52,389 nucleotides of DNA from NCBI GenBank assembly GCA_015064525.1, contig SVSC01000003.1:1-52389 (forward strand), read 5' to 3'. The position numbers and the translations under genes were made by a program. Under the pieces are notes generated by a model. That model ran no database searches, was not told where the DNA came from, and was given only the letters and a program-made list of their open reading frames with translations. Below, piece after piece: positions 192 through 644 of this stretch; the first letter of the stretch is position 1; every line of letters begins with the position of its first letter. The DNA comes from Oscillospiraceae bacterium (lineage in GTDB: Bacteria > Bacillota > Clostridia > Oscillospirales > CAG-272).

Positions 192-229
192 CTGCTTTAT
201 TGCAGGCACCCTAAGCGGCGTGCTTTTTG

Positions 230-521
230 TTTTGGCAGGGGCGGATGAAAAAGATATTTCGGGGAGTTTTTGTATGGACTTGAACTCACGTACCAAATCA
301 CGCCGCAGGCGTGCATATCATCCGCAACTTGTTGCGGTATATCACCAAGGCGAAAGCCTTGTATATCATCATTGCGAAAGAGGATACAGCCTGCGGCTGA
401 TGATATACACGGCGTTGCCGTGATGATATCCAGCCCCACAGGGGCTGATGATATGCCATTGCTTTCGCAATGGATAAAAAAATTCGACAAGCCGAAACTT
501 GTCGAATTTTTTGGCAGGGGC
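230..521. mobile_element. Putative non-coding mini-element at the tRNA-Trp 3' end (hairpin array between 13 bp direct repeats)
   Basis: Direct repeat ttttggcaggggc at 230-242 and 509-521, the second overlapping the tRNA 3' end. Seven short perfect hairpins are joined by YATATCAY / ATGATATN linkers. Confidence 0.6.
477..512 (-). terminator. Terminator immediately downstream of tRNA-Trp
   Basis: Perfect stem aaaaaattcgacaag-ccgaaa-cttgtcgaatttttt. Confidence 0.8.
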
Positions 522-615: not shown

Positions 616-644
616 ATTATACCACACTTTTTCGGAAATTGCAA
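616..644 (-). promoter_or_regulatory. sigmaA-type promoter of tRNA-Trp
   Basis: TTGCAA-17 bp-TATAAT with extended TG on the minus strand. Confidence 0.75.

Follow-up and report, generated by a model that had tools for sequence, protein, structure and literature searches.

Introduction

Proteins of the PF05635/TIGR02436 family (the '23S rRNA intervening-sequence protein' family) are four-helix-bundle proteins, and outside diversity-generating retroelements (DGRs) they have no known function. They are encoded in 23S rRNA intervening sequences (IVS) such as that of Coxiella burnetii (PMC4990558), small elements built around inverted, hairpin-forming sequence. A homologous fold is found in Avd of DGRs (PMC10053308), a pentameric, positively charged barrel in which all five protomers contact an RNA stem-loop (Sp) whose flipped-out bases sit between protomers (preprint 10.1101/2023.10.23.563531). 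Other extragenic, multi-copy and modular palindromic units are the REP/BIME and REPIN elements of Proteobacteria and the BOX and NIME mosaic repeats, which lie at the 3' ends of transcription units, often in inverted pairs and in variable numbers. Finally, the extraordinarily stable DNA mini-hairpins GCGNAGC and GCGNNAGC occur at single-strand replication origins and phage N4 early promoters, where they act in single-stranded or extruded DNA as protein recognition signals (PMC13037366).

Here we describe a hairpin array downstream of a tRNA-Trp gene of an Oscillospiraceae bacterium (GCA_015064525.1, contig SVSC01000003.1; the genome is called G000 below, and 'the window' is the whole 52,389-nt stretch analysed). 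We find that it is a gene-less copy of a widespread repeat of gut Clostridia whose complete copies carry a gene for a small Avd-like protein. The array is thus a likely nucleic-acid partner of that protein family, although binding itself is inferred. In the literature searched, which did not extend to subscription papers or supplementary files, we found no description of hairpin arrays linked to PF05635 genes or to tRNA flanks in Clostridia.

Results

Structure of the array in the window

The first-pass annotation had described seven perfect short hairpins joined by 8-nt linkers at 299-473, and this observation was confirmed. All seven hairpins are present as perfect Watson-Crick stems at 299-313, 322-337, 346-361, 387-399, 408-422, 431-447 and 456-473. 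The six 8-nt linkers lie at 314-321, 338-345 and 362-369 on the left and at 400-407, 423-430 and 448-455 on the right. The outer and inner linker pairs are perfect reverse complements, the middle pair matches at 6 of 8 positions, and segment 370-380 is the exact reverse complement of 462-472.

Chance is excluded as an explanation. The pattern ATGATATN{14,18}ATGATAT had 2 matches against 0.00 expected, and TGATGATAT had 4 against 0.22. The folding z-scores of the two strands were -7.2 and -7.0 with RNA parameters and -8.0 and -8.1 with DNA parameters, and 0 of 200 shuffles reached the observed energy on either strand. With DNA parameters, the minimum-energy fold of the + strand was the one proposed in the annotation, with seven hairpins plus three nested linker helices. 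No supported gene overlaps the array in the window, and the ORFs that cross it run through a multi-copy repeat. A cmscan of positions 1-800 against Rfam 15 with permissive filters detected only tRNA (RF00005, 55.1 bits); the best hits over the array scored 14.9-16.6 bits against gathering thresholds of 46-90.

ARAGORN places tRNA-Trp(cca) at 512-587 on the minus strand, with its promoter (TTGCAA, 17 nt, TG-TATAAT) at 616-644 on the same strand. The array therefore lies downstream of the tRNA, beyond an A-tract and a bidirectional terminator hairpin (474-512; 15-nt arms 477-491 and 498-512) that abuts the CCA end of the tRNA. The same type of terminator was seen at the copies on contigs C122 and C71 of G000. 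On the tRNA-proximal side, the array ends with the terminal hairpin (456-473, minus strand, ccattgc-tttc-gcaatgg), which has a GAAA loop on the minus (tRNA-sense) strand. The right half-array (400-455, minus strand) is in inverted orientation and consists of linker R1 (400-407), hairpin 408-422, R2 (423-430), hairpin 431-447 and R3 (448-455); its units read as hairpin plus ATATCAT on the minus strand. The centre is formed by a half-hairpin (CEN, 370-380, + strand, cattgcgaaag), which is complementary to the loop plus 3' arm of the terminal hairpin (462-472), followed by a 6-nt spacer (381-386) and the central hairpin (387-399, cagcc-tgc-ggctg), whose GCA loop reads on the minus strand. The left half-array (314-369, + strand) comprises linker L1 (314-321), hairpin 322-337 with a CTTG loop, linker L2 (338-345, an ATATCAC variant), hairpin 346-361 with the GCGAAAGC mini-hairpin motif, and linker L3 (362-369). 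It is preceded by hairpin hp0 (299-313, cacgcc-GCA-ggcgtg), which has a C(GNA)G loop on the + strand.

The far-side flank (243-298, minus strand, alpha type) has a conserved AAAAAGATATTT box (248-259) and a degenerate outward promoter on the tRNA-sense strand: -35 TTCAAG (complement of 279-284), an 18-nt spacer and -10 GAAATA (complement of 255-260). A consensus scan did not call this copy, but the same flank in C71, C122 and the related array loci L011 and L014 carries TTCAAA/TTCGAA, 17-18 nt and TAAAAT, as read by eye. We first took T-arm-like segments in this flank (GTTCAAGTCC and similar) for tRNA remnants. The promoter reading fits better in five copies read by eye, and Rfam found no partial tRNA there; locus L021 does carry a real partial tRNA-Ser copy. 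Still further out, 196-242 contains a displaced remnant of the ancestral tRNA-Trp terminator plus a 13-nt duplicate (TTTTGGCAGGGGC, 230-242) of the tRNA-Trp 3' end (509-521), which marks the far border of the inserted module. This reading rests on the direct repeat and on an alignment with the tRNA-Trp terminators of the same-genus genomes G012 and G172, which have no array there. For the copy at the C88 locus, an empty-site comparison gave no result as the flanks are too diverged.

Distribution of the repeat

G000 (81.55% complete) holds at least 7 copies plus a degenerate eighth, each downstream of a tRNA or, in C119, of a weak tmRNA match. BLAST detected the repeat in 47 of 201 genomes of the family. 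The exact triple-linker pattern occurred in 114 of 401 genomes of the same family, against 3 hits of the reversed control pattern, and in 7 of 400 genomes of other families of the class, spread over four families, with 0 control hits. All copies examined lie in intergenic DNA, mostly after tRNA or tmRNA terminators. There was no blastn match in the plasmid or phage collections. Two scans of viral contigs listed 80 and 29 loci, with some loci in both lists, and true arrays occurred in only three of them: L222 has a one-directional array just upstream of a small-terminase gene, which is a single case, and L321 and L328 are host flank beside a tRNA fragment.

Covariation and loop sequences

The annotation had inferred a selected architecture of conserved linkers alternating with variable hairpins, and had named homologues with neither compensatory changes nor conserved linker complementarity as a result that would count against it. 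The hairpins keep pairing through compensatory changes: 105 of 126 distinct inter-linker segments had a stem of at least 4 bp, against a mean of 6.1 in shuffles. The pairing of CEN with the terminal hairpin, which the annotation had mentioned as an alternative fold, was supported more strongly than proposed. It is the one long-range pairing with covariation behind it, with at least 10 of 11 matches in 55 of 59 arrays and at least six covarying sequence pairs, loop included. These matches were counted with a script, as MAFFT shifted the two terminal-hairpin types by one column in the alignment.

In contrast, the spine of stacked four-way junctions was not supported. In 46 distinct arrays, the core linker helix was 7/7 Watson-Crick in 43 (outer), 33 (middle) and only 23 (inner), so that the inner helix was mismatched in 23 of 46, and linker variants were never compensated. 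Moreover, one-directional arrays without partner linkers exist.

Of 249 distinct units, 139 carried a C(GNA)G or C(GNNA)G loop on the linker strand against 16 on the other strand, and the exact GCGNAGC or GCGNNAGC motif occurred 54 times against 0. Each half-array carries these loops on its own linker strand, so the two halves are mirrored. The loop statistics favour single-stranded DNA hairpins. Non-Watson-Crick pairs, however, gave no strand signal (13 G-T and 28 A-C among 1375 pairs).

Association with PF05635/TIGR02436 genes

Complete relatives read tRNA, terminator, array, promoter and then a PF05635/TIGR02436 gene. In 15 array loci, such a gene lies 3-85 nt from the array, and in 12 of these the array is within 450 nt upstream of the start codon. 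Two of the proteins scored 64.2 and 87.7 bits with PF05635 (cut-off 33.8) and 72.4 and 90.8 bits with TIGR02436 (cut-off 24). Only about 15 of roughly 93 array loci examined carry the gene, and in L091 it lies on the terminator side of the array, not the far side.

We also took a reciprocal sample of 27 parsed PF05635 genes from different genomes. Of these, 16 had an upstream array with at least 3 hairpin-separated heptamers, 3 more had 2, and 0 of 27 had one downstream. In 15 of 27, a same-strand tRNA or tmRNA ended 119-309 nt upstream. About 8 of 27 had no such array, and one subgroup had none (0 of 10). PF05635 was found in 26 of 29 genomes with ATATCAT arrays, against 39 of 91 genomes without arrays (odds ratio 11.6, P=9e-6, not corrected for phylogeny).

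The linker heptamer tracked the protein subfamily, each subfamily having its own. Examples are ACATCAT, ACATCAC, GCTTCAT, CTTCAC, ATATCAC, and ATATCAT in 7 of 7 and 8 of 8 members of two subfamilies. Single-linkage clustering of the proteins at 55% identity merged most subfamilies, and the subfamily labels are N-terminal signatures read by eye.

G000 itself has an intact PF05635 gene (contig C85:15103-15456; 89.7 bits), which is preceded by 4 GTGATAT and 6 ATATCAC hairpin units. The closest solved relative of its product is PDB entry 2RLD (E 3.1e-20), which has 5 chains. This gene uses ATATCAC, not the ATATCAT of the seven orphan arrays; given the incompleteness of the assembly, a better-matched gene may be missing.

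Searches for other functions

No Y1 (HUH) transposase (PF01797) was found in the 81.55% complete assembly of G000 or in many array-bearing genomes, including array-rich ones such as G031, while it was present in 83 of 201 genomes of the family. The HUH-nuclease substrate suggested by the annotation is therefore not supported. No reverse transcriptase (PF00078) was found in G000, and none was seen beside the PF05635 genes inspected, whose flanks were read by eye.

Three gut metatranscriptome runs contained 0.05 of the sampled words. Their contigs gave summed depths of 64-741 over 313-525, against roughly 0-20 over the neighbouring genes. As these contigs are without strand, the array modules are shared by many species and DNA carry-over cannot be excluded, this result is evidence neither for nor against transcription.

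A junction diagnostic of inversion between 370-380 and 462-472 was found in 0 of 55 local arrays and 0 times in 401 genomes of the family, the single hit being an ordinary internal hairpin. A metagenome scan with a too degenerate pattern listed at least 80 loci, and the one hit inside an array among the 80 was likewise an ordinary hairpin.

Discussion

Taken together, the interpretation of the first-pass annotation was partly supported: a selected, family-wide architecture that behaves as a non-autonomous version of a longer, gene-carrying element is borne out, whereas the junction spine and the HUH link are not. The protein partner could not be seen from the window, because the window copy lacks it.

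We propose, with moderate confidence, that the lattice is one orphan copy of a modular element family of gut Clostridia that occupies the DNA just after the terminator of tRNA and tmRNA genes. The building block is a 7-nt linker (here ATATCAT) plus a short hairpin whose loop is C(GNA)G or C(GNNA)G on the linker strand. Two half-arrays of three to four units face each other, and a central half-hairpin pairs with the tRNA-proximal terminal hairpin. The most likely mechanism is that the array is the cognate nucleic-acid platform of the pentamer-forming Avd-like protein, by analogy with Avd and its stem-loop. Hairpin-plus-heptamer units would be bound in cis at complete modules and in trans at orphan copies such as this one, for which the candidate in this genome is the C85 product. 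Our data establish the architecture, its conservation and covariation, the tRNA adjacency, the gene association and the correlation between linker and protein subfamily. That the protein binds the array, that the bound form is hairpin DNA rather than RNA, and what the complex does are inferred; possible roles are autoregulation or control of the outward promoter, insulation after the tRNA gene, or spread of the element. An upstream region and its gene are inherited together, so the correlation between linker and protein could reflect shared descent alone. The argument for DNA hairpins rests on loop statistics and on properties of mini-hairpins taken from a review; RNA is not excluded, and the known Avd ligand is RNA.

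An unlikely alternative is that the arrays are selfish, non-autonomous palindromic repeats, like REP/BIME, REPIN or MITE elements, which an unidentified enzyme recognizing hairpin-plus-linker units in single-stranded DNA spreads into tRNA 3' flanks, with the four-helix-bundle gene as cargo or hitch-hiker. Consistent with this, copy number differs widely within one genus (at least 7 in G000, 0 in G012 and 0-2 in G106 and G172), and in the window the module 243-508 sits between tRNA-Trp and its displaced ancestral terminator, with a 13-nt duplication. Whole-element tandem duplications, truncated copies and degenerate copies exist. Identical 54-nt stretches of array occur in different genera and in another family, while the neighbouring genes of same-genus genomes are only 68-73% identical. 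The loops are also of the DNA mini-hairpin type. However, no transposase lies inside or beside any copy, Y1 transposase was not found in G000 or in many array-rich genomes, as described above, and there was no blastn match in the plasmid or phage collections. A flanking duplication of the tRNA end of 10 nt or more was seen in only 2 of 31 tRNA-linked arrays (C27 and L084), and only ATC is shared at the two ends, which does not fit a MITE or TIR transposon remnant with a target-site duplication at each copy. The concerted change of every linker in step with the protein subfamily is not explained either.

Somewhat less likely still is a structured non-coding RNA, transcribed antisense to the tRNA and ended by the shared bidirectional terminator, or as read-through of the tRNA, which would fold into the hairpin lattice and might still be the RNA ligand of the Avd-like protein. 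The RNA folds are strong on both strands, the hairpins and the closing helix covary, and in some complete modules, including C85 of G000 and locus L070, no promoter is visible between the last linker and the ribosome-binding site, so the array could lie in the 5' leader. On the other hand, in most complete modules the array lies between a terminator and the promoter of the next gene, which means outside both transcripts. Triloops GNA and tetraloops GNNA with a pyrimidine at position 3 (24 GTCA, GTTA, GACA or GATA against 25 GNRA) fit DNA mini-hairpins better than the RNA GNRA or UNCG rules. The GNA loops sit on opposite strands in the two halves, there is no excess of G-U over A-C pairs on either strand, and Rfam has no match.

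An invertible DNA switch between 370-380 and 462-472 would, as worked out by hand, restore a complete terminal-type hairpin after L3 and give seven units in one orientation, which would explain the mirrored loops and the half-hairpin, and the repeats covary as the sites of a recombinase would and one-directional arrays exist elsewhere, but it is very unlikely as the inverted junction was not found in the arrays and genomes searched and no invertase gene is linked to the arrays.

More tentatively, stand-alone Avd-like proteins may form sequence-specific nucleoprotein complexes with arrays of extruded or single-stranded DNA mini-hairpins spaced by a cognate heptamer. In this view, protein and array together would be a previously unrecognized genetic module that colonizes the 3' flanks of tRNA and tmRNA genes, and perhaps rRNA as IVS, and that would leave orphan arrays under trans control, for example as portable terminator-array-promoter cassettes.

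PF05635/TIGR02436 proteins are common in bacterial genomes (66 of 121 genomes sampled here, with up to 9 per genome), and a conserved cis element that changes in step with the protein provides a concrete candidate ligand, accessible to simple binding assays. It also ties together 23S rRNA intervening sequences, Avd and palindromic intergenic repeats, which have been treated separately. For genome annotation, it defines a new repeat family at tRNA flanks. The repeats often lie near contig ends here and may break metagenome assemblies, and their outward-facing promoters could alter expression of neighbouring genes.

Comparison with described systems

Like the 23S rRNA IVS with an S23p/PF05635 ORF, the element is small, sits at a stable-RNA gene, is built around inverted, hairpin-forming sequence and in its complete form encodes a PF05635 protein. 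It differs in lying after the terminator of tRNA or tmRNA genes, not inside a 23S rRNA helix, and in consisting of 6-8 heptamer-plus-mini-hairpin units, not one long stem; the window copy has no ORF.

The link to Avd is the homologous protein fold and the kind of ligand, as a stem-loop with adjacent flipped-out bases resembles the unit repeated here. In contrast to DGRs, no reverse transcriptase was found in this genome and there are no template or variable repeats. The ligand here would be a repeated array, probably DNA, and the protein stands alone.

REP/BIME and REPIN elements, as well as BOX and NIME repeats, share the extragenic, modular and palindromic organization. Here, however, there is no GTAG-type REP head and no RAYT (Y1) gene is required. 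The conserved part is a 7-nt linker, while the palindromes vary and covary, the location is biased to tRNA 3' flanks, and the elements are linked to a PF05635 gene. CRISPR arrays have direct repeats of about 23-50 nt, unique non-palindromic spacers and cas genes, while here the constant part is 7-8 nt and the variable parts are 11-22-nt palindromes shared between loci and genera.

With the mini-hairpins of single-strand replication origins and phage N4 early promoters, the arrays share the loop-closing motifs and their strand specificity. Here they come as arrays of 6 to more than 17 different hairpins spaced by a constant heptamer in chromosomal tRNA flanks, with no link found to replication or to N4-type transcription.

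Structure of the hairpin array

The seven perfect hairpins and six 8-nt linkers described by the first-pass annotation at 299-473 are all present, and the observation therefore holds exactly as it was made. The outer (314-321 with 448-455) and inner (362-369 with 400-407) linker pairs are perfect reverse complements, the middle pair matches at 6 of 8 positions, and segment 370-380 is the exact complement of 462-472. The tRNA-Trp gene lies at 512-587 on the minus strand and is separated from the array by a bidirectional terminator hairpin at 477-512. It is preceded by a near-consensus extended -10 promoter (TTGCAA, 17 nt, TG-TATAAT; 616-644, minus strand). The linker spacing pattern and the 9-mer TGATGATAT are far above shuffled expectation. 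Both strands fold far better than shuffled sequences, as RNA (z -7.2 and -7.0) as well as with DNA parameters (z -8.0 and -8.1), and the DNA minimum-energy fold of the + strand is the stack of four-way junctions proposed in the annotation. A search of Rfam returned nothing for the array.

The terminator stem next to the array (483-506) contains TTCGACA and TGTCGAA in inverted orientation, as do the terminators on contigs C122 and C71 of the same assembly. This resembles the Spo0A '0A box' TGNCGAA but may be coincidence.

A repeat family at tRNA flanks

We searched the window's own assembly (G000; 149 contigs, 81.55% complete) with BLAST and found six further copies, on contigs C122, C88, C142, C63, C71 and C119. 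Each copy lies just beyond the terminator of a stable-RNA gene: Trp, Leu(gag) twice, Tyr, Leu(tag) and Gln(ctg), and, in C119, a weak, contig-cut tmRNA match of 16 bits, which is below the gathering score. A degenerate eighth copy follows tRNA-Glu(ctc). Several tRNA genes of G000 without arrays (contigs C32, C73 and C110) share a conserved terminator type, with a stem ending in acttttgt and a loop like ctacc, and the same type flanks many arrays in other genera.

The sequence of the array region hit 47 of 201 genomes of the family. The exact pattern of three linkers hit 114 of 401 genomes, in 57 of 97 genera, while the reversed control pattern hit three times in all. With a stricter pattern, true arrays were found in 7 of 400 genomes of other families of the class, spread over four families, with no control hits. 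These assemblies are fragmented metagenome bins. A 54-nt stretch of array is identical between G520 (C178:2225-2278), a genome of another family, and G000 (C63:553-606), although neighbouring protein genes of same-genus genomes are only about 70% identical. This could reflect horizontal spread, extreme constraint or bin contamination.

We also scanned one genome per species, which yielded at least 80 loci. Of 80 of these loci, 37 are true arrays and the 43 others are chance matches without hairpins. All 37 come from metagenome-assembled genomes titled Clostridia, Eubacteriales, Acutalibacteraceae, Oscillospiraceae, Faecousia or Avilachnospira, apart from one 2.6-kb contig labelled Spirochaetales, and 18 of them lie within 70 nt of a tRNA or tmRNA. 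No matches were obtained in the plasmid or phage collections. Only three viral contigs carry true arrays, and two of those are host flank. In the third (locus L222:8650-8800), a one-directional array of five ATGATAT-hairpin units lies between a small Cys-rich ORF and the small-terminase gene of a phage-like contig, followed by large terminase and portal genes. Cos or pac sites usually lie at this position, but this is a single case.

Anatomy of the arrays

Read on the window's + strand, every common copy has AAATCA and then hairpin hp0, followed by two or three units of hairpin, one nucleotide and ATATCAT, and then by a last ATATCAT. An 11-nt half-hairpin (CEN), a 6-nt spacer and a central hairpin come next. 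Three units of ATGATAT, one nucleotide and hairpin follow, the last of these hairpins being the terminal hairpin, and after it come ATAAAAA, a bidirectional terminator and the CCA end of the tRNA.

Other forms also exist, namely a second arrangement with the halves swapped (RRRR-centre-LLLL), tandem duplications of the whole element, one-directional arrays of 4 to more than 17 units, and arrays with other heptamers. Whole-element tandem duplications lie downstream of one tRNA at L069 (genome G200, contig C4) and at L020 (G107, contig C3), and in L020 a pseudo-tRNA-like fragment sits between the two copies. The loci L065:1-400 (G058), L066 and L056-L059 (G300) include long one-directional arrays, with at least 17 near-identical units that differ mainly in the tetraloop, and arrays with mixed linker variants (ATGACAT, ATTCCAT, ACATCAT). 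Several of these have no tRNA within about 600 nt.

Structural constraint

To investigate which pairings are maintained, we compared the arrays with each other. Of 126 distinct inter-linker segments, 105 form stems of at least 4 bp, compared with 6.1 in shuffles (maximum 13), and RNAalifold on the seven copies of G000 found 16 pairs with double changes. CEN is complementary to the loop plus 3' arm of the terminal hairpin at 11 of 11 positions in 43 arrays and at 10 of 11 in 12 more, out of 59 valid arrays; two further parses were false and were left out. At least six different sequence pairs covary, and they include the loop, which is not part of the hairpin's own stem. The same relation was read by eye in the swapped and the ACATCAT subfamilies.

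The linker helices, in contrast, are not maintained. In 46 distinct arrays the seven core pairs are all Watson-Crick in 43 (outer), 33 (middle) and 23 (inner). The frequent ATGAGAT variant of R1 (the first right-hand linker) and the three ATCTCAT variants of L3 (the last left-hand linker) are never matched on the other side. The interpretation given in the first-pass annotation is therefore only partly supported: the pairing that it offered as an alternative fold is the supported long-range contact, whereas its spine of four-way junctions is only thermodynamically possible.

DNA or RNA

The loops are strongly strand-specific and mirrored. Left-half hairpins have GNA, GNRA or CTTG loops on the + strand in 68 of 88 cases, against 0 of 88 on the other strand, and right-half hairpins have them on the minus strand in 68 of 126 cases, against 4 of 126 on the + strand. 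Of 249 distinct units read on the ATATCAT strand, 139 contain C(GNA)G or C(GNNA)G, against 16 on the opposite strand, and 54 contain the exact GCGNAGC or GCGNNAGC motif, against none. Triloops dominate, and about half of the GNNA tetraloops have a pyrimidine at position 3. This is the signature of the extraordinarily stable DNA mini-hairpin found at single-strand replication origins and phage N4 promoters (PMC13037366), and not the RNA GNRA or UNCG rule. Wobble pairs gave no strand signal and the evidence from gut metatranscriptomes was uninformative. We therefore favour hairpin DNA, but RNA is not excluded.

Association with PF05635 genes

Looking beyond the arrays, we found that 15 related loci carry a small gene 3-85 nt from the array; L011, where the nearest linker is an isolated heptamer, was excluded. 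Two representatives score well above the cut-offs of PF05635 (23S rRNA intervening-sequence protein) and TIGR02436 (four helix bundle protein). In 12 of the 15 loci the array is within 450 nt upstream of the start codon, while locus L091 has the gene on the terminator side instead.

We then examined the association from the gene side. Thirteen PF05635 genes in five array-rich genomes were inspected by eye, and at least 10 are preceded by hairpin or heptad arrays, which use different heptamers: ATATCAT, ACATCAT/ATGATGT, ACTTCAT, ATGGCAT/ATTCCAT and ATTTCAC. In a sample not chosen for arrays, we took the 29 best PF05635 loci from 121 genomes, of which 27 could be parsed. Sixteen have an upstream array with at least three hairpin-separated heptamers, three more have two, and none has one downstream. 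In 15 of the 27 a same-strand tRNA or tmRNA ends 119-309 nt upstream. We conclude that the complete module is tRNA, terminator, array, (promoter), PF05635 gene, although several of the statements on promoters and on non-ATATCAT arrays rest on sequence read by eye. PF05635 genes of the 'II..KSF.FA.RIVKL' subgroup (loci L453, L458 (G388) and L460 (G084)) lack heptamer-hairpin arrays. They are flanked on both sides by inverted runs of other 7-nt repeats, such as CTCTGCA and CACTATT, plus a short hairpin.

The intact PF05635 gene of G000 (contig C85; protein P0001) is preceded by four GTGATAT and six ATATCAC hairpin units. A second copy (C128:3005-3232) has two in-frame TGA codons and is apparently broken, and no array was seen upstream of it. 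Within an array all linkers agree, and between protein subfamilies they differ at one to three positions. Genomes with ATATCAT arrays have PF05635 genes in 26 of 29 cases, against 39 of 91 without arrays (odds ratio 11.6, p 9e-6, uncorrected for relatedness).

Evidence of insertion

Window 196-247 aligns with the terminator and last 10 nt of tRNA-Trp in two same-genus genomes that lack the array (G012 and G172), and homology stops exactly after GGCAGGGGC. This segment is a decayed copy of the ancestral tRNA-Trp terminator with the last 10 nt of the tRNA; the observation also covers loci L044 and L042. In G012 and G172 the terminator palindrome extends into the tRNA 3' end, giving a 16-19-nt inverted copy of the acceptor end. 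Together with the 13-nt direct repeat in the window, the alignment shows that the 266-bp module 243-508 was placed between the tRNA end and its old terminator. Such a duplication is rare elsewhere (2 of 31 arrays).

Proposed mechanism and relation to known systems

By analogy with Avd of diversity-generating retroelements, we propose that each hairpin with its flanking heptamer is a binding unit for the stand-alone pentamer, in which the heptamer would give specificity and the mini-hairpin would present it. Orphan arrays such as that of the window would then be bound in trans. The architecture of the arrays, the pairing of CEN with the terminal hairpin and the association with PF05635 genes were observed directly in the sequences, whereas binding by the protein, in cis or in trans, and any function of the complex are inferred. 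The position between a terminator and an outward promoter suggests control of that promoter or insulation; the promoter is TTGATT/TTGAAT-17-TATAAT in many copies and degenerate in the window. The patchy distribution and the insertion scar suggest a role in spread.

A purely selfish REP-like or MITE-like repeat remains possible, but it lacks an enzyme and does not explain the match between linker and protein. A structured RNA also remains possible and is compatible with an Avd-like binder. An invertible switch is disfavoured.

No reverse transcriptase was found in G000. PF05635 proteins resemble Avd (PMC10053308), which is a pentameric, positively charged barrel. Its five protomers all contact one stem-loop, with flipped-out bases inserted between protomers (preprint 10.1101/2023.10.23.563531). 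The nearest solved relative of the G000 protein, 2RLD, was deposited with five chains.
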